Source of the DNA: a bacterium
GTDB lineage: Bacteria; Patescibacteriota; Minisyncoccia; Ryanbacterales; GWA2-47-10b
Length of the DNA stretch: 37,080 nt
Direction of reading: 5' to 3'
Assembly (NCBI GenBank): GCA_027624915.1
Contig: JAQBTR010000008.1
Location: 1 to 37,080, forward strand
Shown here: positions 51 to 36,634 of the stretch, piece by piece
Layout of the letters: each line of letters starts with the position of its first letter
How positions within the stretch are numbered: position 1 is the stretch's first letter
Translations under genes and position numbers: made by a program
The notes under the pieces: generated by a model
Databases searched by the model: none
Told to the model about the DNA's origin: nothing
What the model saw: the letters and a program-made list of their open reading frames with translations, nothing else

Positions 51-52
51 AT

Positions 53-1548: not shown

Positions 1549-1578
1549 AAAAATGACCGTGTAGGCGGTTATTTTTTT
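1547..1578. terminator. bidirectional hairpin terminator between the convergent jag and TolB-like genes
   Basis: AAAAAAATGACCG-tgtagg-CGGTTATTTTTTT forms a roughly 13-bp stem with one G-U pair, flanked by an A-run and a T-run. It overlaps both stop codons. Confidence 0.45.
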
Positions 1579-2818: not shown

Positions 2819-2827
2819 AAATTTATT

Positions 2828-3505: not shown

Positions 3506-3508
3506 AAT

Positions 3509-4693: not shown

Positions 4694-4697
4694 TTTA

Positions 4698-5174: not shown

Positions 5175-5176
5175 AA

Positions 5177-6994: not shown

Positions 6995-6995
6995 A

Positions 6996-7700: not shown

Positions 7701-7833
7701 TTACCCTCCTAAATTTTTAAGAACTATTAAAAGCACGGCATCATAATTCTTTATTTGCCGGACTGTCCTTATCTTATTGTTTATATTTGTTTTCATATTA
7801 TTCGCTTTATTCTTAAAAGTTTTGGCGGGTGAA

Positions 7834-8244: not shown

Positions 8245-8245
8245 A

Positions 8246-8938: not shown

Positions 8939-8956
8939 TTTAGTTTTTTATTTTGC

Positions 8957-20814: not shown

Positions 20815-20854
20815 AGATGTATTCCTAGCAGATGCGCCTAGGGTTTAGCAATAA

Positions 20855-20883
20855 TTGACCGTGAGAAATCAGCGTGCTATAAG
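20855..20883 (+). promoter_or_regulatory. sigma70-type promoter TTGACC-17-TATAAG for the GC-rich cassette gene
   Basis: TTGACC at 20855-20860, a 17-nt spacer, TATAAG at 20878-20883, then AGGAGG at 20895-20900 and the ATG at 20905. Confidence 0.55.
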
Positions 20884-20904
20884 GAGTCAGACGTAGGAGG
20901 AATT

Positions 20905-21342
20905 ATGTCAGGAGCACGTACTGGTTATTTTGGACCGGTGGATCCTTATGATCCGGTTGCGATGGATAGGACCCTAATGTCACCAAGCAATCGCCTAGAT
21001 CTGACGGTAGTCGTTGCCGCTAGTCGAGGCGTTCCCATGCACCCCTCGCTCCCTGCAGCGTGTCTTATAGATCCAGCTCTCTGGCCACTGCCCGCAGCGC
21101 ACCTTCCAGATCAATCCCACAAGAGACCAGAGAAGTCCAAGGGTGGATTCTCAATTCATTCAGCTGAGTTTTTGTATTGTGAGAAGGGGGCGATGGGATT
21201 GCCAACTCCTGCAGACCGAGTCGCAACATTTCTTTCCTGCAACTTGCCAAGCATGCACTTTAAGATGATTGGTATGGTGAATGGCAGGTCGGACTCAATC
21301 ATAATTTTCTACCAAAACCCAGAAGAGCTTCCATTAGACTAA
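20905..21342 (+). CDS. hypothetical protein (145 aa) encoded in a GC-rich islet; no recognisable family
   Basis: Strong SD (GTAGGAGGAATT-ATG) and an uninterrupted 145-codon frame in roughly 55-60% GC DNA. A rho-independent terminator follows immediately after the stop. Confidence 0.5.
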   Translation: MSGARTGYFGPVDPYDPVAMDRTLMSPSNRLDLTVVVAASRGVPMHPSLPAACLIDPALWPLPAAHLPDQSHKRPEKSKGGFSIHSAEFLYCEKGAMGLPTPADRVATFLSCNLPSMHFKMIGMVNGRSDSIIIFYQNPEELPLD

Positions 21343-21343
21343 A

Positions 21344-21371
21344 CTCCCGACAAGCGGGAGTCTTTTATTTT
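21344..21371 (+). terminator. rho-independent terminator
   Basis: CTCCCG-acaa-GCGGGAG followed by TCTTTTATTTT. Confidence 0.8.
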
Positions 21372-21381
21372 AGGGTGGGTT

Positions 21382-21573
21382 TTAGAGAAAAATTGAGAAG
21401 AGCCGTGGAGTAGCTGTTTGTCGTGTTTGGTGATAGGTAAGTTGTTGTAAAAGAAGCTTGTGACGTCTTGCGTCTTGTCTGTATGAACGACCCTTAATTA
21501 TTTTGAGGTCGATTCGATTGTTTACTTTGTCGAGCTCTGTTGTGATTACTCGTTCGAATTGTTTGCTGCTCAT
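21382..21573 (-). CDS. small basic hypothetical protein (63 aa) 9 nt downstream of lexA, probably co-transcribed
   Basis: ATG 9 nt after the lexA stop, with no hairpin between them. The next terminator-like hairpin is at 21344-21371. No clear SD. Confidence 0.35.
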   Translation of the reverse strand: MSSKQFERVITTELDKVNNRIDLKIIKGRSYRQDARRHKLLLQQLTYHQTRQTATPRLFSIFL

Positions 21574-21582
21574 GTTTTTAAT

Positions 21583-22152
21583 TTATGCGTATTTTCTAAT
21601 AACGGCCTTTACGATTCCTCCTACGCGGAGATACTCACGTGGGAATATAGAATCAAAGTTTTTGTTGGCGGGTTTCAGATAAGGTTGACCCCGTTTCGAT
21701 TCGTAATACTTGAGTGTCCAGTCTCCGTCTACTTCGGCAACGACGATGTCTCCTTGCTTGGCAACCGATGCTTGTTCAATTAGTATGCGGTCACCATCAT
21801 GTATACCGGCATCAATCATCGACTCTCCCTTAACTGTCAACATGTAAGTCTCACCAGGTTTTCGTATTAGGAAGTCATCAAGACTAATGGCATCGTTTAT
21901 ATCAGCTATCGCTTCATGTGGAATACCGGCCTCAACAAGTCCTAGCATGGCGACACCTCCGAAGATGTTTTGTGGTATGAGGTGCCCGCCCGAATCCTTT
22001 TCTACCATCCCCTCGTCTACCATATTGTTGATGAGTTTGTAGACGGAGTTTTTAGACTTGAACTTAAACATCTCCATAAATTCTTTGTAGCCTGGCATCC
22101 GACGATGCTCTCTATAAAAACTAACTATCTTTTGTTTGCGCTCTTTATCCAT
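21583..22152 (-). CDS. lexA: LexA repressor (S24 peptidase)
   Basis: wHTH N-terminus, cleavage and catalytic region (VKGESMIDAGIHDGD ... GGIVKAVIRKY). Start set at the first ATG (MDKERKQ); an upstream in-frame TTG at 22227 would add 25 aa. Confidence 0.85.
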   Translation of the reverse strand: MDKERKQKIVSFYREHRRMPGYKEFMEMFKFKSKNSVYKLINNMVDEGMVEKDSGGHLIPQNIFGGVAMLGLVEAGIPHEAIADINDAISLDDFLIRKPGETYMLTVKGESMIDAGIHDGDRILIEQASVAKQGDIVVAEVDGDWTLKYYESKRGQPYLKPANKNFDSIFPREYLRVGGIVKAVIRKYA

Positions 22153-22276
22153 CCCGTTAGTGATAGGTCGTCTGGGACGACCGTATTTGTTTAGTTGGTA
22201 ATTATTGGTTCTAAGTTTTGTTATCAATCCTGCTTTGTGATTTTATATACTAGTCACTAACAGGATCCATGAAAAT

Positions 22277-22305
22277 AGTATAGGTGAACCATAGTTCACC
22301 ATCAA
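22277..22305 (-). promoter_or_regulatory. lexA promoter TTGATG-17-TATACT with a LexA (Cheo-type) box GGTGAAC-n4-GTTCACC in the spacer
   Basis: On the minus strand: TTGATG GTGAACTATGGTTCACC TATACT. GAAC-N4-GTTC is the Gram-positive-type LexA box core. The layout is that of classic autoregulation. Confidence 0.7.
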
Positions 22306-22333
22306 CCAAATCCCTGTGGATAGCCTTAAGGTG

Positions 22334-22362
22334 TTGCAAATAAAGGATGTTTTGGCTATAAT
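22334..22362 (+). promoter_or_regulatory. sigma70 promoter TTGCAA-17-TATAAT driving the candidate sRNA
   Basis: TTGCAA at 22334-22339, a 17-nt spacer, TATAAT at 22357-22362. Divergent from the lexA promoter. Confidence 0.55.
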
Positions 22363-22368
22363 TTTTGT

Positions 22369-22585
22369 GGGCTGGGAGCTCATAAGGATTACTCATCGGG
22401 TGCAGCGCACCAGGATGGGGAAAAGGTTGCCTCTGGACCTAGCTCATGTAAATCTCATGACAATAAAGGTGAGTAAAGTGGCAAAGAGCCTTCGACCGTT
22501 CGTAACCAAGCTACCACTATCCAATAGGGATAGCCCAAGGGCTCCCAGTCCGCCGTTTCAATCGACCATGCGTGGTCGATTTTTT
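22369..22585 (+). ncRNA. candidate small RNA (about 215 nt) of unknown class; a 6S-like closed-end fold is possible
   Basis: A consensus promoter and an intrinsic terminator (ATCGACCA-tgcg-TGGTCGAT then TTTTT at 22561-22585) delimit a unit with no credible CDS. The 5' end GGGCUGGGAGC pairs with GCUCCCAGUCC at 22541-22551. No downstream gene on this strand. Confidence 0.4.
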
Positions 22586-22600
22586 AATGTCCGAATAACG

Positions 22601-22630
22601 AAACAAAAAATCCGGCTACCTAGTAGCCGG
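22601..22630 (-). terminator. rho-independent terminator for the 22616-23137 gene
   Basis: CCGGCTAC-cta-GTAGCCGG; the minus strand is followed by ATTTTTTGTTT. The stop codon lies in the stem. Confidence 0.6.
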
Positions 22631-23137
22631 CTCGATAAGTAGGTTGTGATGAACAAAGTGTACGACGTATGTCCCATCAATTCGTTCTCCAAGATCACTT
22701 AGCGTAAATTGTATGTTTTTGTTGGCTCGTTTTCTGACAGTAATCCATCCTTTGGCGAGCCCAAGTGGGGCGCCATTACCCTCTTGTGAATATGTGTGGG
22801 GGACAAAACATTTTTGTAAGCCCGCGCCTCCATTTGGGTCTGGCTTTCCATGCCTCATGATTTTATCCACGGATAAATCATTATCAAAATCTCCGTCAAA
22901 GAGCTCATACCGTAGTGGTATTATTACGCGACGTTCAAGTAGACGTTCAAACGCATTCCCCGGAAGCGTCCAAACAAATCTCCCGTCATGACCGTCCTTA
23001 ATAGTAAAAAAGCTAAATTTGCCGGCAACATCTTTAACCCAAGCATATTCAATTGATCGTATTCCCTCATGCTTGCCATATAACGAGAGGTGACTAAGAG
23101 CCTCTTCGTCAGTAAGTTTTATTGTTCTTTGGGGCAA
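22616..23137 (-). CDS. hypothetical protein (about 173 aa)
   Basis: Long ORF. Start reassigned to an in-frame TTG 7 nt after a strong SD (AAAGGAGGT), because the track GTG start lies in the T-tract of the upstream terminator. Confidence 0.5.
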   Translation of the reverse strand: MPQRTIKLTDEEALSHLSLYGKHEGIRSIEYAWVKDVAGKFSFFTIKDGHDGRFVWTLPGNAFERLLERRVIIPLRYELFDGDFDNDLSVDKIMRHGKPDPNGGAGLQKCFVPHTYSQEGNGAPLGLAKGWITVRKRANKNIQFTLSDLGERIDGTYVVHFVHHNLLIEPATR

Positions 23138-23169
23138 AAAGCCACCTCCTTTGTTCTTGTGAGATACTA

Positions 23170-23532
23170 TCACAAAAAAGCCCCGAGAAGTTCTCGGGGA
23201 AGGGGCTGGCCACCATCATCATTGGGACCCGTTGTTTCGTGTCTGAGCTTAATTAGTGAGGTTTGGATTTCTTGGAAGTGGATGGAAGCGCGCGGATCAA
23301 AAAACATATCTATATGTCGATCAAGAGCTTCGATACAGGCCTCGAGAAGCTCAAGCGCAACATGAGAGTCTGCAACACCGAGGTGTTCATTCGCGCCTCT
23401 CCAATCATCTAAAGCTTTGAATGCAGAGACGTAAGCATTTCGCGTGTGCTTAATTCCGGCTATTCGTAGGTAGATGACAAGGGTGAAAAACCCCAAAAGA
23501 ACTCCTCCCGTAAGAGCACCCTGAATGGTCAT
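23170..23532 (-). CDS. small single-TM hypothetical protein (GC-rich islet)
   Basis: Start moved to an internal ATG (MTIQGALTGGVLLGFFTLVIYL...) with GGAG 6 nt upstream. The track N-terminus is encoded by the upstream gene's terminator hairpin. Confidence 0.4.
   Translation of the reverse strand: MTIQGALTGGVLLGFFTLVIYLRIAGIKHTRNAYVSAFKALDDWRGANEHLGVADSHVALELLEACIEALDRHIDMFFDPRASIHFQEIQTSLIKLRHETTGPNDDGGQPLPRELLGAFL
23181..23199 (-). terminator. hairpin terminator (CCCCGAGAA-g-TTCTCGGGG) followed by T6 on the minus strand
   Basis: Perfect 9-bp inverted repeat with an A6 run on the plus strand. It overlaps the last codons of the 23170-23532 ORF. Confidence 0.55.
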
Positions 23533-23583
23533 GAGGATCTCCAAATCTTTTCCCAGTCTATGTAGATTATGAGAAAAAGAAAA

Positions 23584-23606
23584 GGGCCCCGCTTTAAGCG
23601 GGGCCG
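23584..23606 (-). terminator. GC-rich hairpin terminator (GGCCCCGCTT-t-AAGCGGGGCC) with the stop codon of the upstream gene in its loop
   Basis: 10-bp stem; the minus strand is followed by CTTTTCTTTTTCTC. Confidence 0.6.
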
Positions 23607-23947
23607 GGGAGGAGGCTTGCTTGGAGTGCGCCACAGATGCGATCGTTCTGTTCAAAAAGATGTCGTGCCATGCTGATGGCTAGGGCGACGTCGTCGGTGT
23701 CGTATGCGTCTCTCATGTGCTGACAACCTCCAAGCCCAAAGAACTTGTGTTCGTCGGGCATGAAATCGTCACGTTCTAGGCGGTCTACTTCTCGCATGTA
23801 GCGATTACGCAAAGGCCTGTACAGCACGAGCATGTCCTCGATGTCCTGACGTCTCAACAGGACGACGACTCTGGGGTCGAGTGGCAGGAATACTACGTCG
23901 GAGCGTTGCCCGACTGGCCAAATTGAGCTGCCAAGTTGTGGTGCCAT
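23594..23947 (-). CDS. hypothetical protein (117 aa) in a GC-rich islet
   Basis: Excellent SD (CCAAGGAGGAGTTTAA-ATG), its own terminator, about 55% GC, no recognisable family. Confidence 0.55.
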   Translation of the reverse strand: MAPQLGSSIWPVGQRSDVVFLPLDPRVVVLLRRQDIEDMLVLYRPLRNRYMREVDRLERDDFMPDEHKFFGLGGCQHMRDAYDTDDVALAISMARHLFEQNDRICGALQASLLPGPA

Positions 23948-24201
23948 TTAAACTCCTCCTTGGAAATGGAACTATGTAAAAAGAGATTAAAACAAAAAGA
24001 GCCACACGTCAACCCCCACATTAATATTTGTATTGTTGTGCTATAAATTTGATGACATAAACCAGGATTTGGCGCGTGTAATGTTTTTGATACAATCTAG
24101 AAATAAGGCACAACAAAAATTCATAATGCAAATATTAGTGCAGGGGGTCAAGAGCTCTTTTTGTTTTGAATTTAGAGTAGAGAAAAATTTTTGAGAATAC
24201 T

Positions 24202-24555
24202 CTACTTTGAGTGGTTAACGCAGGTTCGTGCCGCTGGATTTGCCCGAAGACGATTTTCTAGAATTTCTTCTTTCCCAACCTCGCACGTACCATATGTTCC
24301 ATCCTTGATACGGTTTAAAGCACCATTGATATTTACGAGTTTTGCCTCAAGTACGGCATTCACACCAAGTGCGTTACTGTATTCTTCAACCTCGTCCGCC
24401 ATATCGTTTTTGTCAGAGGGCTCAACATTAAGATCCGGGTATTTTGCCTCCCAGTCGTTAGGGTTATCTGGATTTTGCCGAGAGACAGAAGATAGAGTTT
24501 CCTCTATAGTTTTCTTCTCATCAAGCAAAAGCTTTTCAAATTCTTTTACATTCAT
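24202..24555 (-). CDS. DksA/TraR-family-like protein (degenerate C4 finger)
   Basis: Coiled-coil N-terminus and a C-terminus (GTYGTCEVGKEEILENRLRANPAARTCVNH) resembling the DksA/TraR zinc-finger region with only 2 Cys. Confidence 0.5.
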   Translation of the reverse strand: MNVKEFEKLLLDEKKTIEETLSSVSRQNPDNPNDWEAKYPDLNVEPSDKNDMADEVEEYSNALGVNAVLEAKLVNINGALNRIKDGTYGTCEVGKEEILENRLRANPAARTCVNHSK

Positions 24556-24567
24556 GGAGCTACTGTA

Positions 24568-27623: not shown

Positions 27624-27680
27624 AATAATTGTATCGAGAGTTTTATTCTCGTATGGTGTACCGTTCGTAGCGTACCACTA

Positions 27681-28196: not shown

Positions 28197-28206
28197 AACC
28201 AAACTC

Positions 28207-28473
28207 TTATTTCTTGATACCAAACTTCTTCTGTAGAGTAGAAAGCTGTTTTGTATCTCCCTTAGAAAGATATTCGAGAAGACTCTTTCGCTTGGCTACC
28301 ATTTTGAGTAGGCCTCTGCGTGAGTGATTATCTTTTCGGTATTTCTTTAGGTGTGCTGCTAATTGCTCAATCTGTTTTGAAATAATAGCAATTTGGACAG
28401 CCGAAGAACCAGTATCTGTATCGTGAATCTGGTTTTTCTCGATGACCTTTTTCTTTGACGCTGTTTTAAGCAT
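28207..28473 (-). CDS. rpsO: 30S ribosomal protein S15
   Basis: 88 aa; DTGSSAVQIAIISKQIEQLAAHLKKYRKDNHSRRGLLKMV is the canonical S15 core. Confidence 0.92.
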   Translation of the reverse strand: MLKTASKKKVIEKNQIHDTDTGSSAVQIAIISKQIEQLAAHLKKYRKDNHSRRGLLKMVAKRKSLLEYLSKGDTKQLSTLQKKFGIKK

Positions 28474-28572
28474 GGGAGGATTATAGCAACTAAAAACTCA
28501 AAAGTCAAGCCAGGAAACCCTTTATTTATAACAAATATGCATAGATAAGATTGTGCGACATGGTACAATTGG

Positions 28573-29463
28573 GTGGTGAGCATAGATAAGGCATTACGGG
28601 AATTTTTAGAGGATTTGGAGCTCGAAAAGGGCAGAAGTCAAAAAACGATTCAAAACTATGAGCATTATTTGGCGCGGTTCTTTCGTGAGGCCAAAATAAA
28701 GAAGCCTTCGGACATAACTGACGCGCGAGTACGCGAATTTAGGCTCAAATTAAATCGAACAGGACTTGGGGCTAAGACGCGAAACTATCACTTGATAGCT
28801 TTGCGCATGTTTTTAAAATATTTGGTGAAACGCGAAATTCTCTCACTCGCACCTGATCGCATTGAGCTTGCGAAACTTCCAGATCGAGACATAGATATCC
28901 CCCCATCTGAAGATCTTGATAGACTTTTAAAAGCACCAGATACAAATACGCTTCAAGGACTACGGGACCGTGCAATATTGGAAATGCTTTTTTCTACGGG
29001 TCTTCGCGTGTCAGAACTCACCTCTCTTGATTGTGACACCATCGATTTTTCACGAGACGAATTTTCTATACGCGGTAAGGGTAGCAAGGTGCGAATTGTT
29101 TTTTTGTCTCCTGACGCCAAGCAGGCATGTCAGGCATACACAAAAAAACGAGAGGACGTTGGGGAGGCGCTTTTTGTTGGCACGCAGAAAAAGAATCAGT
29201 CACGACTTACAACCAGGCAAGTCGAACGACTCGTAGCGCGCTATGCCGTTAAATCAGGAATCCCCGGCAAGGTAACTCCACATACACTACGACATATGTT
29301 TGCGACCGATCTTTTGATGAACGGTGCTGACATTAGGTCAGTTCAGGTATTGCTTGGTCACTCATCAATAACAACAACACAAATATATACTCACATGACA
29401 GACCGCCAGTTGCGGGATGTTCACAAGGCGTTTCATGGGAAGAGGAGACGAAAAACAAGTTAG
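28573..29463 (+). CDS. tyrosine site-specific recombinase, XerC/XerD family
   Basis: 296 aa with an N-terminal core-binding domain and catalytic R...HxxR...Y (LRHMFATDLL ... TQIYTHM). GTG start 4-7 nt after an extended -10 (TGgTACAAT), so possibly leaderless. Confidence 0.85.
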   Translation: MVSIDKALREFLEDLELEKGRSQKTIQNYEHYLARFFREAKIKKPSDITDARVREFRLKLNRTGLGAKTRNYHLIALRMFLKYLVKREILSLAPDRIELAKLPDRDIDIPPSEDLDRLLKAPDTNTLQGLRDRAILEMLFSTGLRVSELTSLDCDTIDFSRDEFSIRGKGSKVRIVFLSPDAKQACQAYTKKREDVGEALFVGTQKKNQSRLTTRQVERLVARYAVKSGIPGKVTPHTLRHMFATDLLMNGADIRSVQVLLGHSSITTTQIYTHMTDRQLRDVHKAFHGKRRRKTS

Positions 29464-29535
29464 GGAAATATCCACGATCTAATCCAGATGGTTATTATAT
29501 AAACCGCTCAATCAGAAGCTTATATTTCCCTAACT
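29458..29535. repeat. 14-bp inverted repeat (AGTTAGGGAAATAT / ATATTTCCCTAACT) flanking a 50-bp spacer at the xer stop codon
   Basis: Read directly; the arms are perfect reverse complements. Confidence 0.5.
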
Positions 29536-29657
29536 TGTTTTTCTTGGAGTGACGCGACTCAATAAAAAATGAAAAAGTAAATGGTTTTTATTTTGTGAGG
29601 GCGAAAACAAATTAAGAAATAATTTGAAGCAGAAAAACTCTACATTTCATTCTTCAT

Positions 29658-29695
29658 AATTTCCTTAACTATGATGCATCGTAGTTAAGGAAATT
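29658..29695. repeat. 38-bp near-perfect palindrome AATTTCCTTAACTA-TGATGCATCG-TAGTTAAGGAAATT (dif- or att-like candidate)
   Basis: 14-bp perfect arms around a palindromic 8-bp core GATGCATC with one T/G asymmetry. It lies at the boundary between AT-rich backbone and the GC-rich island. Confidence 0.5.
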
Positions 29696-29740
29696 GTAAA
29701 TCTATAAAGGGGATATCTATTTTTTAAAAAATGAAACGGG

Positions 29741-29763
29741 CCCCGATGAAGCTGGGGCCCGAG
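29741..29763 (-). terminator. GC hairpin (GGGCCCC-n9-GGGGCCC) followed on the minus strand by a T-rich tract
   Basis: Preceded on the plus strand by TTTTTTAAAAAATGAAAC; terminator for the 29879-30115 gene. Confidence 0.45.
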
Positions 29764-29878
29764 ACGGTGTGCTACCCACTGGGTTAGCATCCGGCTTTAC
29801 GTGAGCGAATTTTGGTCGCTCGTTATTCAATTTTTTTGTACGCTGCTCAAAAGAGTCAGCGTCGGGGGTTTGGGTGGA

Positions 29879-30115
29879 TCAGTGGGTGCAGAGAACGCGC
29901 TCGGCTTCGCGGACGTCTTCCGGGTTGATGTTGTGCTCACGGAGCACGACCTCAGCGGCGCGAACGGGGTTGTCGATTCCCATCGCGAGACACCGGAGAT
30001 TCCAGTGAGTCGAGACGAGCATGCCGTCCCGATCCCGTGGATGCATCCGCAGGATGTTCACGGCGGTCTCGACGCACGTACGCTCTCGGCCTCGGATACC
30101 CTGAGAAATGGTCAT
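29879..30115 (-). CDS. small hypothetical protein (78 aa) in the GC-rich island
   Basis: SD AGGGAG 9 nt before the ATG (MTISQGIRG...); about 60% GC. The overlapping plus-strand ORF was judged a shadow ORF. Confidence 0.4.
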   Translation of the reverse strand: MTISQGIRGRERTCVETAVNILRMHPRDRDGMLVSTHWNLRCLAMGIDNPVRAAEVVLREHNINPEDVREAERVLCTH

Positions 30116-30237
30116 TCCACTATTCTCCCTATGACGTTTTGGTGTCGCCCCCTGCGACACGTCAGAAACTACTAAAAAGCATTATAGCACAAGGGTTTTC
30201 AGCCGTCAAGCTCTGTAGCTGAAAATCCTTACCAGGC

Positions 30238-30266
30238 TTGACATTTAGATATATTTATGATATAAT
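30238..30266 (+). promoter_or_regulatory. perfect-consensus sigma70 promoter TTGACA-17-TATAAT
   Basis: TTGACA at 30238-30243, a 17-nt spacer, TATAAT at 30261-30266. It precedes a roughly 110-nt 5' UTR holding two hairpins (CTTTGACT...AGTCAAAG; AGCCGC-GAAA-GCGGCT) before the SPFH gene. Confidence 0.6.
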
Positions 30267-30384
30267 CCTGTCAGGTTAATACGGTATGTTCTTTGACTCG
30301 TCCTATAAGTCAAAGTGGAAATTAAAACCAAAAACGTAGCCGCGAAAGCGGCTCAAAAACAACGAAAGGAACAGGTAGAAGATA

Positions 30385-31527
30385 ATGAGTATGGGAATGC
30401 AGGTCGCATTAACGATTCTCACAATCTATGCCCTCTTTCTTCTGGTGGCTGGCGTCGGCATAGCGCTTCTCATGCACTATGCCGATGACGAACTCAAGAA
30501 GATTCGAGATCTTCTCCATACGGCAGTGGTCACGATTCGTTTGAAGGGCGTCGTGTTTCTCGTTCAAGAGAATCACTCGATTGTCTTTCGGAACGTATGG
30601 GCGACTGATATCGGTCACCTCGCAGGCTGGGTCTCTAAGACCATCGGAACGCGCGGGATCGCCAAACCTCTCTGTAGAAGAGAGAAGTGCCCTTATGAGG
30701 GCACAGATGCATGCACTGATGAACACCACCTAGGACTCGGCCCTCTCAAGTATAAGATTAGAGCCCCTGTCTATCTCACCGGCCCACAGCAGGGTCGTCC
30801 AGGGTCGGTCAAGCAGTCTACCTACAACGAGATTGCTGCCGGCACGACGAGGCAGTACAGAGGTTACAAGATCAAGCGCGAGGGGTATCGATTCTGGGTG
30901 CCGTCAGTGTGGCAGGATCTCTTCGACGTTGTGAACATGCGTCCCGTGTCGGTTTCGGTCGACCGGGATTACGAGTTCAACACTGGAGATAACCAGGAGG
31001 TTCTCATTAAGTTCCGGTACGTGTCGCAGGTTATCGACCCAATCGCTTTTCAAGTAAGGGTCGGTAATGATCAGCGCGCGGCCTGGGAGAAGGAGCAGGT
31101 CATCTCAATGATTCAGCAGATGACCAACGCCTACACGGCCGATCAGTTGACTGGCGCTGACGATGTTCAGCTCGGTTCGCTCGGTCAGATGCTTGCGGAG
31201 GTGTACAACTTCTTCATGATGGCCTACGGGCTTCAGGTTTCCGTAATTCAGATTCTTCAGATCTCACCGCCAACCGTAATCGCAGAGCGTGCAGCCCATG
31301 TACGTGCGGCTCAGCTTGCACGGAAAGCGGCGAAAGCCGAGGGTGAGAGGATCAGGGAGATCGTCGATATCACGGGCGCAACGCCCGATGAAGTCGTGCG
31401 CGCCATCAGCTATCAGAATATGGTCAACCAGGGTTCTACCACGTTCATCAGGGTCGCGGAAGCGATTAAGGATGAGTTTGCGGCGGGACGCCGAGAGGCC
31501 AAGAAAGCAAAGGAGAAGGCAGCATGA
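30385..31527 (+). CDS. SPFH/band-7 (stomatin/HflK-like) domain membrane protein with a Cys-containing insertion
   Basis: N-terminal TM, then SPFH-like segments (VVFLVQENHSIVFRNV ... GLQVSVIQILQISPPTVIAERAAHVRAAQLARKAAKAEGERI) and a coiled-coil tail. The roughly 90-aa insertion contains CRREKCPYEGTDAC. Confidence 0.55.
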   Translation: MSMGMQVALTILTIYALFLLVAGVGIALLMHYADDELKKIRDLLHTAVVTIRLKGVVFLVQENHSIVFRNVWATDIGHLAGWVSKTIGTRGIAKPLCRREKCPYEGTDACTDEHHLGLGPLKYKIRAPVYLTGPQQGRPGSVKQSTYNEIAAGTTRQYRGYKIKREGYRFWVPSVWQDLFDVVNMRPVSVSVDRDYEFNTGDNQEVLIKFRYVSQVIDPIAFQVRVGNDQRAAWEKEQVISMIQQMTNAYTADQLTGADDVQLGSLGQMLAEVYNFFMMAYGLQVSVIQILQISPPTVIAERAAHVRAAQLARKAAKAEGERIREIVDITGATPDEVVRAISYQNMVNQGSTTFIRVAEAIKDEFAAGRREAKKAKEKAA

Positions 31528-32996
31528 CCAAGGTCAAGAATTTCTTCAACGTAACCGGCAGGTTTTTACTTCGGTACCCCCTGCTGGTTGGATTCCTCGT
31601 AGTACTTCCGTTCCTCTTCGCCCTTGTATATGCCACCTGGGGTGGCATCGGGGCGGTCTTCTCGGGGGGTGCTGGCACTGGGCCTGTACCTATCCCCACG
31701 AGAGTTCTCACCTCGCTTGAGTGGGGCTGGATGGTGGCACACGTCGCCCTCTTTGCCCTCTTCTACTGTGTGTATCGTCACCGTCCATCACCCCCTGAGA
31801 AGGAATTCGATAAGGATGGTGAGCCGAGGCTTCATTACCTCGGTACAGATGGTTGGGAGCTTCGAAACGAGTACTGCCGGAAAATCCGTGAGACTCTCAA
31901 CATCCTCGTTGGATATTTCATCATCCTCTGGGCGGTGGAGCTATCCTCGTGGCCGATCAGTTCGTTCTGGCTGCCACGATGGCCGGTCGCCACAGCATGG
32001 ATCCTCATCACTCCGCTCGTTGCGGGAGGATTCCTTTCCTACTACGTCGACTGGACGAAGTCGTCTAGTCGACGAGCCCTTTGGGCATTCTATGCAGTAG
32101 CGTCCGTGATTTTTGCTCTGTCCCTCACCTTCGGGTGGATGGATGCACAAGATCCTGTCGCTGAAACACTGCGTCAGACCAAAGGCGAAATTCTCGAAGC
32201 AAGGTTAACTCCTTTAGAGGAAAAAGCCGAGCTCCTTCGTGAAGCATGGCGCGCAGGTTTCATCACTGAAGATGAGGCCGTAGAAAAGATCGCGAAGCTT
32301 CGCGAGATTCACCAGAGCGCCGAAAAGAAGTTCGGCAACCCCAACCCGCTTGCGGATGTTGTGGTTCCTGAGGCAGAAAAAGTCCTCGGCAAAGGTGGCG
32401 AATACATTGGCGGCGAGTTTTCCGAATTCTTCGGACCCTTCGTCAATGCCACCCCGTCGGAGTATCGGTACCTATGGTTTAACCCTTTCTTCTGGGGCCT
32501 TCTGATCATCGCTATCGCGGTCTTCGCGAAACTGGCGACCCGGTATGAAGGTGTTCGTACATTCATCGCGTGGATGACATTCCTTGCGGTCTGCCTTGTT
32601 CTTATCATCGTGTTTACAGCAGCTCATGAGCCAGGTGGACTCGCTCGGTTCAGCTCGGAGAAACAGACAGAGACACGAACAGATGCCGACTCTGTTGCCT
32701 TGTTCAGTCATCATCGAACCTTCGACATCAAGTCGGGAGATCGTATCCGAGTTTGGCCGAAAAATCATCCAAGGCCAAACATCACCGGAGGTGACGGGAT
32801 GTGGTATGTAACGTATGCCGCAGGGTCAACGATTCTCGGCTTCGAAATGTACCGATCGGGTGGCATGGTCGTTCAGGCTGGCACCGTTTCCGGGCCAGCA
32901 CAACTTCCAAACAATTTTTACGAGATGGATTTGGTGGCACAGAAAGGCGCTGTCAGATTCACTCTCCACTGCAATGGCTGTACCTACAGCCAATAG
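31524..32996 (+). CDS. polytopic membrane protein (about 8 TM) with a C-terminal soluble beta-rich domain; SPFH operon partner (NfeD-like role is speculative)
   Basis: ATGA overlap with the SPFH gene, many hydrophobic helices, and a C-terminal domain (FDIKSGDRIRVWPKNHPRP...). Confidence 0.5.
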   Translation: MTKVKNFFNVTGRFLLRYPLLVGFLVVLPFLFALVYATWGGIGAVFSGGAGTGPVPIPTRVLTSLEWGWMVAHVALFALFYCVYRHRPSPPEKEFDKDGEPRLHYLGTDGWELRNEYCRKIRETLNILVGYFIILWAVELSSWPISSFWLPRWPVATAWILITPLVAGGFLSYYVDWTKSSSRRALWAFYAVASVIFALSLTFGWMDAQDPVAETLRQTKGEILEARLTPLEEKAELLREAWRAGFITEDEAVEKIAKLREIHQSAEKKFGNPNPLADVVVPEAEKVLGKGGEYIGGEFSEFFGPFVNATPSEYRYLWFNPFFWGLLIIAIAVFAKLATRYEGVRTFIAWMTFLAVCLVLIIVFTAAHEPGGLARFSSEKQTETRTDADSVALFSHHRTFDIKSGDRIRVWPKNHPRPNITGGDGMWYVTYAAGSTILGFEMYRSGGMVVQAGTVSGPAQLPNNFYEMDLVAQKGAVRFTLHCNGCTYSQ

Positions 32997-33014
32997 GAGG
33001 ACGAGGGACTACAT

Positions 33015-33047
33015 GGGGCGTTGCGCCAAGTCGCAACGCCCCTTTTT
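33015..33047 (+). terminator. rho-independent terminator ending the SPFH operon
   Basis: GGGGCGTTGC-n8-GCAACGCCCC followed by TTTTT. Confidence 0.8.
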
Positions 33048-33124
33048 CATACCCAAAATTTTTTCGATAAAAGACTACCCATGAGGTATAATTTATGATA
33101 AAGTCGGTTCTACGGTTTTATTAA

Positions 33125-33196
33125 AGCGCTCGTGGTGAAATGGATATCACGACTGGCTTCGGACCAGTTGTTGGGGGTTCGAGTCCCTCCGAGCGC
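33125..33196 (+). tRNA. tRNA-Arg (anticodon TCG), no encoded CCA
   Basis: Manual cloverleaf: acceptor GCGCTCG/CGAGCGC, D-stem GTGA/TCAC, anticodon stem ACTGG/CCAGT with loop CTTCGGA, T-arm GGGGG-TTCGAGT-CCCTC, discriminator A. Confidence 0.75.
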
Positions 33197-33243
33197 ACAA
33201 CAATTAAAATAGCCGGTATTAATACCGGCTATTTTAATTGTTG
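33196..33243. terminator. 48-bp perfect palindrome (22-bp arms) acting as a bidirectional terminator after tRNA-Arg
   Basis: ACAACAATTAAAATAGCCGGTA...TACCGGCTATTTTAATTGTTGT followed by a T-rich tract. Confidence 0.6.
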
Positions 33244-33316
33244 TTTATTGCGGGACTCGAAGGGATTTTCTCGCCATTGGTTCAAGAGAAAATCCCCGGG
33301 CGAGCTGATGGAGCGA

Positions 33317-33333
33317 GCGAGTCCCTCCGAGCG
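33317..33333 (+). repeat. 17-nt exact direct repeat of the tRNA-Arg 3' end (CGAGTCCCTCCGAGCGC); att-like scar
   Basis: Identical to 33179-33195. No complete tRNA can be folded around the second copy. Confidence 0.6.
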
Positions 33334-33466
33334 CCATTTATGCATAATTGTAAGGAGTGCAACAACTATACAATTAGCGACTCCTGACCAAGCCCCCCGA
33401 GTCCTTACAACAACACTTGAAAACTTGCTACAATACTATAGAATTACAAGCTATTAAGAATTAGAC

Positions 33467-33539
33467 CCGCCTATAGCTCAGTTGGTAGAGCAGTCGCCTC
33501 TTAAGCGAACGGTCCTAGGTTCGAGCCCTAGTAGGCGGA
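33467..33539 (+). tRNA. tRNA-Lys (anticodon CTT), no encoded CCA
   Basis: Acceptor CCGCCTA/TAGGCGG, D-arm GCTC-AGTTGGTA-GAGC, anticodon loop CTCTTAA, T-arm CTAGG-TTCGAGC-CCTAG. Confidence 0.8.
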
Positions 33540-33551
33540 CAAATAACACTA

Positions 33552-35006
33552 ATGGAAATACCAAAAGAGATTCTCTCTATAATAAATACGCTCGAAAAGG
33601 CAGATTTCGAGGCTTTTGTCGTTGGCGGGAGCGTGCGTGATATTCTTATGGGCCGAAAGCCAAAGGATTGGGACATAGCAACAGATGCCCCACCAGAGGA
33701 AATTGTTAAACTCTTCCCCGATTCAATGTACGAGAACAAATTTGGCACTGTTAGTATTTTTCCAAAGAATGTTTCTGACCCAGCACTTGAGATGGTCGAA
33801 GTAACCCCCTACCGCGTTGAATCTAACTATTCAGACAAGCGTCATCCAGACAAAGTAGAATTTGGTAAAAGCCTAGAAGAAGATCTTTCGCGCAGAGACT
33901 TTACAATTAACGCGCTCGCCCTCAATGTCAAGACAGACGAGGTTGTTGATTTATTTCAAGGCAAAAAAGATTTTAAAGACGGGTTGATTCGTGCGGTTGG
34001 CGATCCAGAGGAGCGGTTTGAAGAAGATGCCTTACGTATCATGCGCGCACTCCGATTGTCAGCTGAACTCGGTTATGCAATTGAGCCAAAGACAAAAGAA
34101 GCGATAACTAACAAGGTTAAACTCCTAAGATTTGTATCCAAAGAACGAATTAGGGATGAGTTTTCCAAAATAATTGCCTCCTTCGAGCCACACTACATTC
34201 TTGATCTTATGAGAGAGCTCGGCATCATGAGTCTTGTACTACCCGAGCTCGAAGAAGGATTTGGTGTTGGTCAGAATAAACATCATGTATACACGGTTTG
34301 GGAACACAATCTTTTTGCGCTCAAGTATGCCGCCGAACAGCATTGGTCTCTTGAGGTGCGCATGGCGGCCTTACTGCATGACATAGGTAAACCCAGAAGT
34401 AAGCGTGGAGAAGGCCACGATTCTACTTTTTATGGGCACGAGATTGTTGGCGCCAAAATGACTCACACCATACTCACACGACTTAAATATTCAAAGGCTT
34501 TTATTGATAAGATCACCAAGCTTGTTCGTTACCACCTCTTTTATTACAACGTAGATGAGGTTGGAGAAGCTTCAGTAAGGCGTCTTATTCGTAAGGTTGG
34601 CCCAGAGGATATGGAAGATCTTATTCGTGTTCGTTTTTGTGACAGGATTGGGTCTGGCGTACCAAAAGCCGAGCCATATAAGTTGCGACACTTCCGTTTT
34701 GTTATAGAAAAGCTTTCTCGCGACCCCATCTCGGTAAAGATGCTCAAGATTACAGGAGAGGATGTGATGAAGGCAACAGAGTTAAAGCCCGGGCCAAGGG
34801 TCGGCATGCTTTTGAACGCACTTTTTGAAGAAGTTTTGGATGACCCAAAGAAAAACAAAAAAGCGACGCTCACCCGTCGCGTAAAGGAACTCGCTGAACT
34901 AAAGGATAGTGAATTAAAAAAGATGGCAGATGAGGCCAAAAACAAATCAGCAGGACTCGAAGAAGAAGAAGTCAAAAAAATCAAAGGCAAGCATAAGGTT
35001 AAGTAA
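33552..35006 (+). CDS. cca: CCA-adding tRNA nucleotidyltransferase (class II, with HD domain)
   Basis: Pol-beta NT motif (FVVGGSVRDILMGRKPKDWDIATDA), RDFTINALA, and an HD domain (LLHDIGKP); Lys-rich C-terminal tail. Confidence 0.9.
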   Translation: MEIPKEILSIINTLEKADFEAFVVGGSVRDILMGRKPKDWDIATDAPPEEIVKLFPDSMYENKFGTVSIFPKNVSDPALEMVEVTPYRVESNYSDKRHPDKVEFGKSLEEDLSRRDFTINALALNVKTDEVVDLFQGKKDFKDGLIRAVGDPEERFEEDALRIMRALRLSAELGYAIEPKTKEAITNKVKLLRFVSKERIRDEFSKIIASFEPHYILDLMRELGIMSLVLPELEEGFGVGQNKHHVYTVWEHNLFALKYAAEQHWSLEVRMAALLHDIGKPRSKRGEGHDSTFYGHEIVGAKMTHTILTRLKYSKAFIDKITKLVRYHLFYYNVDEVGEASVRRLIRKVGPEDMEDLIRVRFCDRIGSGVPKAEPYKLRHFRFVIEKLSRDPISVKMLKITGEDVMKATELKPGPRVGMLLNALFEEVLDDPKKNKKATLTRRVKELAELKDSELKKMADEAKNKSAGLEEEEVKKIKGKHKVK

Positions 35007-35015
35007 AGACTTGTC

Positions 35016-35086
35016 GCGGAGTATAGTATAGTGGTCGTACGCACTCTTCGGGAGGGTGTAGCCCCGGTTCGATTCCGGGTACTCCG
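35016..35086 (+). tRNA. tRNA-Pro (anticodon CGG), no encoded CCA
   Basis: C1:G72 acceptor (CGGAGTA/TACTCCG), anticodon loop TTCGGGA, T-arm CCCGG-TTCGATT-CCGGG. Confidence 0.75.
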
Positions 35087-35217
35087 ACAAAAAAAATCTC
35101 AAAAAAAGAGCTCGAGGTGTTGCATAGGCATTGAGTCATTTCGTAAGATTGATAAAATTAAATATTTGAGGTACTGTACGATCAAATTTGAGTGCAGTAA
35201 CCTACAAGGAGGCATTC

Positions 35218-35442
35218 ATGCCAATGATAATGCTTCTTGTTGTGTGTCATTGCGGTCATCGTAATCGACCAACCAATGGATACAGAAAATCAATTCAGAT
35301 GATCTTGCGAGGCGAGCTTGCTCCATGCCGAAGTTGTGGTGCTAGACTCAACCCAGAGTTTCCTAACACACTAACTGGACGTCGAATCTATCAGGAGCTT
35401 ATTGATACCGGGGAATTTCCAGTCCTTCATCCTAAGTTATAG
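35218..35442 (+). CDS. small zinc-ribbon protein (74 aa)
   Basis: SD AAGGAGG 6 nt before the ATG; CxC...CxxC pattern (CHCGH ... CRSCGARL). A hairpin plus T-tract terminator follows at about 35443-35475. Confidence 0.5.
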   Translation: MPMIMLLVVCHCGHRNRPTNGYRKSIQMILRGELAPCRSCGARLNPEFPNTLTGRRIYQELIDTGEFPVLHPKL

Positions 35443-35494
35443 TCGCCTCTTGAGGGCGACTTTTTTGTTTGTTTAAGATATAACTAGTTCATCA

Positions 35495-35565
35495 GGGCCT
35501 ATAGTTAAGTGGTATAACGGCGCATTCGCATTGCACAAGCGGGAGTTCGATTCTCCCTAGGTCCA
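35495..35565 (+). tRNA. tRNA-Ala (anticodon CGC), no encoded CCA
   Basis: G3:U70 wobble in the acceptor (GGGCCTA/TAGGTCC), anticodon loop TTCGCAT, T-arm GGGAG-TTCGATT-CTCCC. There is one mismatch in the anticodon stem. Confidence 0.7.
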
Positions 35566-35612
35566 CAAGAAAAAAGCCTTATTTAGAGCTATTTTTGGGC
35601 CCAGAGAGCCCT

Positions 35613-35641
35613 TGACAAAAGGATTAAAAAATAGTATAATA
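35613..35641 (+). promoter_or_regulatory. perfect-consensus sigma70 promoter TTGACA-17-TATAAT
   Basis: TTGACA at 35613-35618, a 17-nt spacer, TATAAT at 35636-35641. The leader contains the hairpin CGCAG-ttag-CTGCG, then GGAGG before a GTG start. Confidence 0.6.
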
Positions 35642-35710
35642 CCACCAGGAATTGAGTTTTTAGTACTTAGACAAACGCAGTTAGCTGCGTACAAATACGG
35701 AGGAATACGA

Positions 35711-35932
35711 GTGACCTGGCTTCGATTTTTTATCGGGACCCCACAGCGCCTCATGAGGACCCTCCTCGTGATTGTTGCTCTGGTGGTGTTCTCACACCTC
35801 TACCCCGGTACGATAGCGAACGGGCTTCACCAGCTAGTGTGGGAGATTCAGCCCATTGTGGGCCCGATCCTCACTCTCGTCCTCGTCGTTATTGGGATTC
35901 GAATCATTCTTACTGGAATTGGCAGGCGCTGA
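35711..35932 (+). CDS. small two-TM membrane protein (73 aa) in a GC-rich islet
   Basis: GGAGG 7 nt before the GTG. Hydrophobic helices (LLVIVALVVFSHLY ... ILTLVLVVIGIRIIL). The track start at 35612 falls inside the promoter. Confidence 0.4.
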   Translation: MTWLRFFIGTPQRLMRTLLVIVALVVFSHLYPGTIANGLHQLVWEIQPIVGPILTLVLVVIGIRIILTGIGRR

Positions 35933-35958
35933 TTCCCAAAGACCAAGAAGGAATTCAA

Positions 35959-36240
35959 ATGAGCACATTCGGCAATACGATCCTTCGAGTCTTCTCGTAC
36001 GTGGTGGGTGCCGCTCTCGTGGTATACGGCTGGTACGAGTTCTCTCCGTTCATGATTCAGATGCTTGACCTTAACCTCGTTGCCATCAAATTTGTCTGCG
36101 GCCTACTCCCAGATGAGTATGGCACAATGACAGAGGCAGCGCTTCGAGTCAGCTTGCACGCCGACAAGGCACTGTTGCTGGCCGAGGGTGGCTGGGTCGT
36201 CAGTGGCTTCATCCACCTGTTCAGAGTCGCCTTTCGGTGA
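35959..36240 (+). CDS. small membrane protein (93 aa) in a GC-rich islet
   Basis: AAGGAA before the ATG (MSTFGNTILRVFSYVVGAALVVYGW...), followed by a strong terminator. Confidence 0.4.
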   Translation: MSTFGNTILRVFSYVVGAALVVYGWYEFSPFMIQMLDLNLVAIKFVCGLLPDEYGTMTEAALRVSLHADKALLLAEGGWVVSGFIHLFRVAFR

Positions 36241-36272
36241 CCAACACCTGAGCTGTCAGGAATACAGCATAA

Positions 36273-36306
36273 GCGCCCCCAATTCATCGGGGGCGCGTTT
36301 CTTTTT
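36273..36306 (+). terminator. rho-independent terminator
   Basis: GCGCCCCC-aattcatc-GGGGGCGC followed by GTTTCTTTTTAT. Confidence 0.8.
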
Positions 36307-36634
36307 ATACCAAAGAAAAAAACCGCTCACTAAGAGTGGAAGGAGAAGTAACTCCAATCTTGCGAAAAATCATATGATTCGTAAGTCTCACAATGTCGTT
36401 GCGTTTCCAAATGAGAAAAATAATTGAAAATATTACGTGCGAAGATGAGCGGGTTTAAAAGAACCAGAGCCTGTCTTAGATATATCATGGTGTCACCCCC
36501 TGTCCTTATGTGAGGTTCTAGCTAAAAGAATAGGACAAAAAGGACATAAAGCCAATTGTTACGGCTCTTGTTTTTGGAGCCCCCGCATGATTAGATAAGA
36601 ATATTAGGCGTTAATCTATTTTTTATGAAAAAAC

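Follow-up and report, generated by a model that had tools for sequence, protein, structure and literature searches.

GC3-rich accessory islets, possibly moron-like expression cassettes, in variable slots among the core genes of a Parcubacteria genome

Which genes bacteria of the candidate phyla radiation (CPR), with their tiny genomes and host-dependent lives, exchange, and how they do so, is poorly known. A clean small example is found in the first 37 kb adjoining dnaA in a Parcubacteria (CPR) metagenome genome (contig JAQBTR010000008.1, 37,080 nucleotides; hereafter, the window), where four GC-rich islets stand among housekeeping genes and raise the question of (i) whether they are foreign to the genome that carries them; (ii) where they came from; and (iii) how they entered. 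An original prediction, made from the letters of the DNA, had read them as one family of horizontally acquired mini-cassettes from a single type of donor, a GC-rich phage, plasmid or host, lodged at integration landmarks of an AT-rich genome. Our answer, to which we assign a probability of roughly 0.6, is that the islets are genuine accessory DNA, namely moron-like expression cassettes from a shared flexible gene pool that is rich in G+C at third codon positions (GC3), with the term moron used as defined for phages (PMC3594210).

As dnaA, dnaN, rnpA and yidC are found at position 1 of the window or immediately ahead of it, the region is origin-proximal. Its overall GC content is 43.3%, or 41.8% with the four islets masked, and is 36% in the 10 kb across the origin from the window; with a backbone of 42%, the genome is thus just moderately AT-rich, which weakens the original description of it. 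Gene coordinates were taken from the deposited gene calls and from our own reading of open reading frames (ORFs), while the promoter, terminator and operator signals reported here are in silico consensus matches. For comparison, we used 160 related loci around pnp (±10 kb), obtained from PNPase-centred searches that yielded Parcubacteria/Paceibacteria (CPR) genomes only. The nearest relatives, at 63–68% PNPase identity, are L098 (a Candidatus Ryanbacteria metagenome-assembled genome), L082–L084, and L020.

Composition and codon usage of the islets

A scan for GC-elevated segments (120-nucleotide window, threshold 52%) returned 20921–21161, 23561–23961, 29801–30161, 30441–33041 and 35681–36281, and GC-elevated DNA is thus present at all of the predicted positions (20.8, 23.2, 29.7 and 35.6 kb). 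However, the islets have a GC content of 50–54% overall rather than the 55–60% first proposed, values of 55–62% being reached by single genes alone, and islet 3, far from being a mini-islet, is one 3.3-kb block of two operons (29.74–33.05 kb). Among 1000 length-matched backbone fragments, 1.7% matched or exceeded the GC content of islet 1, and 0% that of islets 2–4.

Eight predicted proteins are encoded by the islets: ISL1_145 (20905–21342, + strand) in islet 1; ISL2_120 (23170–23532, −) and ISL2_117 (23594–23947, −) in islet 2; ISL3_78 (29879–30115, −), ISL3_SPFH (30385–31527, +) and ISL3_490 (31524–32996, +) in islet 3; and ISL4_73 (35711–35932, +) and ISL4_93 (35959–36240, +) in islet 4. 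GC3 is 0.59–0.75 in ISL2_117 (0.61), ISL3_78 (0.75), ISL3_SPFH (0.64), ISL3_490, ISL4_73 (0.65) and ISL4_93 (0.69), compared with 0.36 in nine syntenic core genes, and is near the backbone value in ISL1_145 (0.47) and ISL2_120 (0.42). With GC content normalized, islet 3 also departs from the backbone in dinucleotide composition (delta* 93.8, null 42.7 ± 9.3) and in tetranucleotide composition (r = 0.43, null 0.77 ± 0.06). The three small islets, when pooled, are nearer to islet 3 in k-mer signature than is any equal-sized backbone sample.

Relative synonymous codon usage (RSCU), which is independent of amino-acid content, divides the genes in the same manner. Neither islet 3 (r = −0.09 to all backbone genes, null 0.85 ± 0.04) nor the set of ISL2_117, ISL4_73 and ISL4_93 (r = −0.04, null 0.67 ± 0.07) resembles the backbone, whereas the two correlate with each other (r = 0.44, null −0.08 ± 0.15, maximum 0.30); the codon usage of ISL2_117 and that of islet 4 are both of the foreign type, and the latter correlates with that of islet 3. 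ISL1_145 and ISL2_120 together gave r = 0.49 to the backbone and 0.15 to islet 3, and ISL1_145 by itself is near the backbone. Clearly foreign codon usage is found at three sites (23.59–23.95, 29.74–33.05 and 35.6–36.3 kb), which form one compositional class. The proposed family accordingly stands for islet 3, ISL2_117 and islet 4, which share a codon and dinucleotide signature unlike that of the backbone, and does not extend to islet 1 and ISL2_120.

We see only a very slim chance that the GC-rich patches are instead structured noncoding RNAs (ncRNAs) or artefacts of amino-acid composition. This explanation does apply to a fifth patch, at 9641–10201, which we rejected as an islet: it lies inside a TrbL-like gene, in a truly Gly/Ala/Arg-rich segment, and its GC content follows from amino-acid composition, GC3 being just 0.40. 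The coding status of ISL1_145 (GC3 0.47) is uncertain. The islets, however, gave no Rfam match, either at the gathering threshold or at E ≤ 5, and their ORFs show the GC pattern of coding DNA (GC3 > GC1 > GC2 or GC1 > GC3 > GC2, with GC2 lowest and GC3 0.59–0.75), one of them encoding an SPFH domain.

Variable slots between conserved core genes

The core genes o373, comM, dksA, o283, pnp, NYN, rpsO, xerC and cca recur in the same order in 49–160 of the 160 related loci. The accessory units of the window would then occupy variable slots in the arrangement o373–comM–(slot)–dksA–o283–pnp–NYN–rpsO–xerC–(slot)–tRNA-Arg–tRNA-Lys–cca–tRNA-Pro–(slot)–tRNA-Ala–(slot). None of the islet ORFs had a tblastn match in the 160 loci, nor did o190, o63, lexA, o185 or o84; the presence/absence comparison of pangenome type that had been suggested as a check (0 of 160 loci with islet ORFs) supports accessory status. 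Where dksA and comM are neighbours (84 loci), the gap between them is below 800 bp in 71, including 81 bp in L084 and 197 bp in L083, two close relatives, compared with 3387 bp in the window. Between xerC and cca, the distance in 45 loci is anywhere from 69 to 5539 bp, 8 of these loci having at most 518 bp and little beyond tRNAs.

The same comparison bears on the possibility that GC-rich reads of another organism were spliced into the contig, as an assembly chimera or contamination. Abrupt GC steps, and orphan genes known from this sample alone, would be expected of such an artefact, but it would need eight precise intergenic junctions within 16 kb that leave the neighbours intact, with each insert a complete unit of promoter, Shine–Dalgarno sequence (SD), ORF and terminator, and the inserts would have to fall, as they do, exactly in slots that vary among relatives. 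Furthermore, the relatives, assembled independently and from other samples, have cargo of the same GC3-rich kind in the corresponding slot. The window matches the first 37 kb of the ENA scaffold MEHR18-1_SAMN03444961_METAG-scaffold_521 (85 kb); this record and the NCBI 37-kb contig differ by two substitutions and one indel in 16.7 kb and agree at all junctions. Because all islet ends are intergenic, between intact core genes or tRNAs, and because the two assemblies agree, a chimera is unlikely, and we give it only a minimal probability. A single C at position 34469 is absent from the ENA scaffold, in which cca is thereby split into 333 + 131 aa; cca of the window is intact (484 aa), and the two records differ here through assembly or polishing.

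The xerC|tRNA-Arg slot, which holds islet 3 in the window, is GC3-rich relative to the core in the three nearest relatives as well. GC3 values for slot and core are 0.62 and 0.36 in the window, 0.74 and 0.51 in L098, 0.61 and 0.43 in L082, and 0.59 and 0.54 in L020. The slots of L098, L082 and L020 hold other orphan genes, without an SPFH domain, and no homology of their cargo to the window was detected; hhalign comparison of the L098/L082 slot family with ISL3_490 and with the L020 protein gave probabilities of at most 1%. The cargos of the window, L098 and L082 are close to one another in dinucleotide composition (delta* 19–59, those involving the window 50–59, versus 81–172 to the backbones) and in tetranucleotide composition (r = 0.71–0.79 versus 0.39–0.59 to the backbones). 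In codon usage, islet 3 correlates with the cargos of L098, L082 and L020 (r = 0.66, 0.55 and 0.48, respectively) and not with its own core (0.03), and the small GC3-rich genes of the window correlate with the relatives' cargos at 0.42–0.63 and with cores at 0.05–0.23. Among most relatives, slot DNA is AT-richer than core DNA (xerC|cca, 29 of 37; comM|dksA, 12 of 13).

In L098, the slot (4436–7679, −) has the form of a three-gene operon with strong SDs, a promoter, TTGACT-17-TATAAT (11/12), that is the best of the 16-kb region, and the strongest terminator there (16 bp). Its 468-aa protein has three homologs only among 5.8 billion proteins.

Since their codon usage is unlike that of the host core and like that of the relatives' xerC|tRNA-Arg cargo, ISL2_117, islet 3 and islet 4 were most likely drawn laterally from a GC3-rich flexible pool of this Parcubacteria subclade. 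A recent gain cannot be separated from an old gain followed by divergence, because the nearest genome is distant (68% PNPase identity). The idea of one donor type gains from the three nearest relatives having this signature in slot cargo that is not homologous, and suffers in that no donor was found and islet 1 and ISL2_120 stand apart. The shared signature fits a GC3-rich gene pool; it fits no less well an old island whose composition was kept distinct, for example by GC-biased gene conversion.

A form of the latter explanation would dispense with any GC-rich donor: the common ancestor of the window, L098, L082 and L020 would have carried, as a module in the xerC|tRNA-Arg slot, envelope genes that are specific to the lineage and evolve very fast, with their high GC3 kept by selection or by GC-biased gene conversion at a hot spot of recombination. 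In all four genomes the GC3-rich cargo is co-oriented with xerC and ends in a polytopic protein of 372–490 aa with a C-terminal beta-rich domain, although the SPFH gene of the window occurs in none of the relatives' slot proteins and the hhalign probabilities are negligible. Rapid divergence might account for the latter, as slot proteins of L098 and L082 are 26–42% identical while core proteins are 71–84% identical (PNPase, 75%), and at 68% PNPase identity homology could escape detection; the syntenic core gene o283 is likewise fast (29–47% identity). The islet signature also falls inside the Parcubacteria range. On the other hand, a GC3 gap of 0.26 and an RSCU correlation to the core of about 0 would be hard to keep under vertical descent, the slots of distant relatives are mostly AT-richer, as given above, and ISL2_117 and islet 4, whose slots are empty or differently filled in relatives, are left unexplained. 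We consider this ancestral module doubtful.

Searches for a source of the lateral cassettes that we favour gave little. In a 90% clustering of about 15 billion proteins, each of the eight islet proteins forms a cluster of its own, and five of the eight have transmembrane (TM)-like segments. Pfam, PHROGs, PADLOC and NCBIfam, applied to the islet and insert proteins, returned SPFH and LexA matches only; a PDB sequence search with four islet proteins gave nothing usable; and a word-indexed search with ISL3_SPFH and ISL3_490 returned self-matches only. Neither IMG/VR scans nor tblastn and blastn searches of INPHARED phages and PLSDB plasmids, which included a concatenate of 11 accessory proteins, produced a match, and, according to gene calls and family libraries, no islet contains or adjoins a gene for an integrase, transposase or excisionase, or a phage gene. 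A GC-rich phage, plasmid or host as the donor thus found no support in phage, plasmid, IMG/VR, PHROG or PADLOC matches, and comparison of k-mer signatures with 123 Parcubacteria loci was not discriminating. As for a donor or homolog lineage, a criterion for genomic islands, the proteins are orphans, with the best SPFH match at 28% identity.

Several of these observations count against lateral acquisition from a shared pool. That four related genomes have GC3-rich cargo in the xerC|tRNA-Arg slot could mean an old, very fast-evolving island; the islet k-mer signature is not exotic, the backbone of the window standing 12th among 124 Parcubacteria loci when these are ordered by closeness to it; islet 1 and ISL2_120, the left half of islet 2, are marginal, lack the shared signature and are not clearly of the same class; the searches described gave no donor, no mobile-element gene and no convincing att repeat; and the two assemblies, being from the same sample, are not fully independent.

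Expression signals and gene content

Sites matching TTGACA-17-TATAAT with at most one mismatch number four in the window, versus 0.16 expected. Three belong to islets 3 and 4 (30238, + strand, and 35612, +, both perfect; 30209, −, 11/12), the fourth is that of the backbone gene rpsO (28508, −), and there are no sites of 11/12 or better within 1–19 kb. The promoters of islets 3 and 4 score 11–12 of 12 and that of islet 1 scores 10/12, and the promoter of ISL2_117 has a weak −10 element lacking −11A. There is nothing specific in the islet promoters having been called E. coli-like: the sequence is the plain general sigma-70 consensus, which the host rpsO promoter fits too. The latter, TTGACT-17-TATAAT and TG-extended (28473–28508, −), ends 7 nucleotides ahead of the ATG, and for this reason rpsO is probably translated from a leaderless mRNA.

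The strong AGGAGG-type SDs ascribed to the islets were confirmed: the mean energy of the SD–anti-SD duplex is −8.5 kcal/mol for the eight islet genes versus −3.9 kcal/mol for 30 others (p = 0.0017). No SD precedes pnp, dksA, NYN, xerC and most syntenic core genes, rpsO among them. In three near relatives, slot genes have mean values of −7.5 to −10.0 versus about −3 for the core (p = 1.7e-4), and in 43 more distant loci with AT-rich slots the contrast is weaker but present (−5.1 for slot genes, −3.0 for core genes, p = 1.3e-5). A strong SD is thus a trait of accessory genes relative to these core genes across Parcubacteria generally. As a mark of a GC-rich foreign donor we discarded it, since it is also seen in the AT-rich slots of distant relatives.

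The strongest G+C-rich terminators of the window end accessory units (21343; 22630, −; 23199, −; 23605, −; 33015; 35441; 36273), and only one comparable hairpin is found within 1–19 kb. GC-clamped terminators, as predicted, close islet 1 (21343), islet 2 (23605 and 23199, both −), islet 3 (33015) and islet 4 (36273).

Islet 3 begins with a hairpin, GGGCCCC...GGGGCCC plus a T-run (29738–29762, −), which serves as terminator for ISL3_78 in our direct reading and is absent from the terminator-scan list. An element overlapping it, AAAAAATGAAACGGGsCCC, is present 3' of xerC both in the window (29727–29745) and in L084 (reverse strand, about 840–822) with 18 of 19 nucleotides, at 66% PNPase identity; combining an A-run with the start of the GGGCCCC hairpin, it is probably a convergent bidirectional terminator. 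ISL3_78, a small orphan (GC 62%), is divergent from the SPFH operon, and the control region between them (30181–30266) contains the promoter of ISL3_78 (TTGACG-17-TATAAT, TG-extended, 11/12; 30209–30181, −), that of the SPFH operon (12/12, TG-extended; 30238–30266, +) and a 13-nucleotide inverted repeat between the two (30191–30203/30218–30230) that resembles an operator. ISL3_78 had no PDB or Pfam match, and its AlphaFold2 (AF2) single-sequence model of four helices (pLDDT 60) was too weak for use; it is a candidate regulator.

ISL3_SPFH (380 aa) is a membrane-anchored SPFH/Band 7 protein (Pfam PF01145, E = 6.8e-11, 43 bits versus a cutoff of 23.6) with one N-terminal TM segment (residues 11–29). 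A full HMMER scan of 1.84 billion representatives gave 26 matches at E ≤ 1e-3, the best at 28% identity. ISL3_490 is a polytopic membrane orphan with about five TM-like segments, the central region of which is helical and the C-terminal domain beta-rich, and there is a 4-nucleotide overlap between its start and the SPFH stop; as its AF2 single-sequence model had a pLDDT of 49.5, secondary structure alone was used. Among 5.8 billion proteins, ISL3_490 matched itself only. Because the four closest contig-placed SPFH homologs (28–31% identity) all have a downstream membrane ORF with a 4-nucleotide overlap, the pair of SPFH protein and membrane partner is a conserved module. The contigs of these homologs have a GC content of 33–47%, and one bears CPR-type type IV secretion system (T4SS) pilins; at L163, the SPFH–partner pair is 5–10 GC points above its neighbours. 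The islet would thus encode a scaffold protein of the SPFH family, a polytopic partner whose translation is coupled to that of the former, and a small divergent putative regulator, and by analogy the module may have a membrane-scaffold function. It is closed by a terminator with an 11-bp stem, nine G–C pairs and a T-run (33015–33042, +). An inverted repeat of 21 nucleotides (19/21) brackets ISL3_490, with one arm in the SPFH coding sequence (31375–31395) and the other (33007–33027) overlapping the left arm of the islet 3 terminator; it may be due to chance or reflect that the partner gene was acquired separately.

Islet 4 (35612–36305, +), directly 3' of tRNA-Ala, consists of the perfect TTGACA-17-TATAAT promoter (35612–35640), two ORFs and a terminator with 8/8 G–C pairs (36273–36296). 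Both of its proteins, ISL4_73 (SD GGAGGA) and ISL4_93, have two TM segments. Between tRNA-Pro and tRNA-Ala lies a further accessory cassette, o74 (35218–35461, +), with backbone-like GC content, the SD AAGGAGG, a 74-aa Cys-rich orphan without a match in the 160 related loci, and a terminator (35441–35461). As o74 shows, the cassette grammar is not restricted to GC-rich units.

The right half of islet 2 is the ISL2_117 cassette (23585–24011, −; GC 56%), which has a good −35-like TTGACG (24011–24006), the SD AGGAGGAG (23959–23952; −11.2 kcal/mol), an orphan ORF without a Pfam, PHROG, PADLOC, NCBIfam or PDB match, and a terminator of 9 bp, eight of them G–C pairs (23605–23585). ISL2_120, the marginal left half, has one N-terminal TM segment and is followed by a terminator (23199–23181, −). 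Islet 1 (20855–21365, +), also a marginal member, comprises a promoter-like TTGACC-17-TATAAG (20855–20883; 10/12), the SD AGGAGG (20895–20900), the orphan ISL1_145 (GC 50%) and a terminator hairpin (21343–21361).

These two islets are parts of the 3387-bp comM|dksA insert (20815–24201), which also contains o63 and lexA (21382–22227, −), an ncRNA-like unit, and o173/o185 (22616–23173, −). The lexA gene (21583–22227, −) encodes a bona fide LexA (TIGR00498, 115 bits versus a cutoff of 111), and as none was found within ±10 kb of pnp in the 160 relatives, its location is lineage-specific. The ncRNA-like unit (22334–22590, +) has a promoter-like TTGCAA-17-TATAAT (22334–22362) and a 9-bp terminator (22560–22581); it would give an RNA of about 185 nucleotides closed by a 13-bp helix, GGGCUGGGAGCUC...GGGCUCCCAGUCC, and has a minimum free energy of −81.1 kcal/mol (z = −3.56). 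It had no Rfam match and no nhmmer or blastn match among the 160 related loci, and is a possible unannotated ncRNA.

Elsewhere in the window, a T4SS-like cluster lies beside rnpA–yidC (1577–11344, −; L162 1–10000), with TrbL, PrgI-like, TraC-like, VirB4/TraG P-loop and T4SS pilin genes.

Integration landmarks, proposed origin and known systems

The proximity of the islets to comM, xerC and tRNA genes had been taken as a link to integration, and they might accordingly be remnants of site-specific integrative elements (tyrosine-recombinase islands, prophages or integrative mobile elements exploiting Xer (IMEX)) at comM, xer/dif and tRNAs that have lost their mobility genes. We regard this as improbable. 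As stated above, no integrase, transposase, excisionase or phage gene lies in or beside the islets. Nor is xerC island-borne, because 79 related loci have it as a conserved core gene beside rpsO; its distance from dnaA is about 29 kb, which does not place it at a terminus. We dropped the dif/IMEX idea for the latter reason, dnaA adjoining the window start. Islet 3 lies 5' of tRNA-Arg, and a repeat search around it found no flanking direct repeats and no dif-like or att duplication.

Two inverted repeats follow xerC: a perfect one of 22 nucleotides with a 50-nucleotide spacer (29450–29543), which overlaps the xerC stop codon, and, 110 bp further on, a 24-nucleotide palindrome (88%; 29653–29700). 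They are not conserved in four relatives (alignment of the region in five genomes), which speaks against an integration site, and are possibly terminators.

A scar that looks genuine adjoins the tRNA-Arg gene. A perfect 17-nucleotide direct repeat of its 3' end, CGAGTCCCTCCGAGCGC, recurs 138 bp downstream (33180 and 33318; 33180–33334), with a perfect 48-nucleotide palindrome (33197–33244) between the copies, and the distance from tRNA-Arg to tRNA-Lys is 268 bp here, while in L098 and L020 the two genes are 13 nucleotides apart or abutting. The duplication looks like a scar of tRNA-targeted integration and excision; it brackets just 121 bp of non-islet DNA.

Further repeats that might be cited for integration are imperfect or rich in A, such as chance alone could produce. 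Islet 4, which starts right 3' of tRNA-Ala, is flanked by weak 12-nucleotide A-rich direct repeats, AAGAAAAAAGCC and AAGAAAAAAACC, at 35567 and 36313, and a copy of the comM 5' end (20785–20813; 21 of 29 nucleotides) is found at 24066–24094, 108 nucleotides past the dksA stop. This copy lies approximately where comM begins in relatives, and may be a scar of the insertion that parted dksA and comM, with a chance probability of about 0.15 by our own estimate. A perfect TAGAGAAAAATT pair at 21383 and 24178 is short enough for chance, and the short repeats at islet 4 and the comM|dksA insert are possibly chance as well. With xerC a core gene near the origin, islet 3 unbracketed and the other repeats weak, the link to integration landmarks is mostly coincidental.

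For the accessory cassettes from a shared pool, we therefore consider a different route, in which DNA would be taken up and a cassette replaced or added as its conserved flanks recombine homologously, or else an unrecognised element would deposit it. In each cassette, a promoter and a strong SD would precede one to three orphan ORFs, with an intrinsic terminator at the end, and because each unit has its own promoter and terminator, it would be expressed and insulated, leaving neighbouring operons undisturbed. The cargo, mostly predicted membrane proteins, may serve to organise or vary the cell envelope.

More speculatively, and with no great expectation that it is correct in full, we suggest that this Parcubacteria subclade has a dedicated GC3-rich pool of self-expressing, mostly membrane-protein cassettes that are swapped at fixed slots, above all xerC|tRNA-Arg, without a recombinase of their own, via DNA uptake and homologous recombination. 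The signature would stem from a CPR mobile element or host donor that has so far escaped recognition, or from GC-biased gene conversion at these slots as hot spots, and the swapping would vary the surface or envelope for episymbiotic life.

By itself, the finding is one of ordinary genomic islets, the normal content of a CPR flexible genome. What the locus adds is that accessory and core DNA are separable here on four independent grounds, which are synteny, codon usage, the signals of translation initiation, and terminators. In addition, the accessory cargo of one slot has a codon signature common to four genomes whose cargo proteins are otherwise unrelated; if this stems from a mobile pool that they share, or from a hot spot of recombination, it would provide a handle for finding the Parcubacteria flexible genome from sequence alone, and the SPFH module supplies candidate envelope proteins for studies of host interaction.

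Among known systems, integron gene cassettes are small, mostly single-ORF and arranged in series, as are the orphans described here; the units of the window differ in having their own promoters and terminators, with no attC-type repeats common to them and no IntI found. Integrative islands that target tRNAs or comM, and Xer-dependent IMEX elements, share with the islets a position next to comM, a xer gene and tRNAs, as well as the nearby duplication of the tRNA-Arg 3' end. They differ from the islets, which have no element-borne integrase, a core xerC, an unbracketed islet 3 and an origin-proximal location.

Operons that pair an SPFH (stomatin/flotillin/HflKC) protein with a partner, such as SPFH–NfeD, likewise couple a membrane-anchored SPFH protein to a second membrane protein, the C-terminal domain of which is beta-rich; ISL3_490, however, has no Pfam NfeD match (E ≤ 0.1) and no detectable homologs. 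Flexible genomic islands, or replacement islands, occupy conserved positions and lie beside tRNAs.

Genomic islands and horizontally transferred genes have already been documented in Patescibacteria (PMC12455944). With these and with flexible islands, the cassettes have in common lineage-specific cargo at fixed slots, atypical composition, many hypothetical proteins and CPR as likely exchange partners, while differing in size (0.4–3.3 kb), in being GC-richer than the host, in the absence of mobility genes, and in a codon signature common to the non-homologous cargo of relatives.

Unlike phage morons (PMC3594210), the cassettes stand among chromosomal housekeeping genes (pnp, rpsO, xerC, cca, comM and tRNAs) by the origin, and have no phage genes, PHROG or IMG/VR matches. 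Like them, they possess a promoter and a terminator of their own, a GC content unlike that of their neighbours, a position as additional DNA separating genes that stand side by side in relatives, and a cargo that, as is often true of morons, is a small membrane protein or one of benefit to the host.

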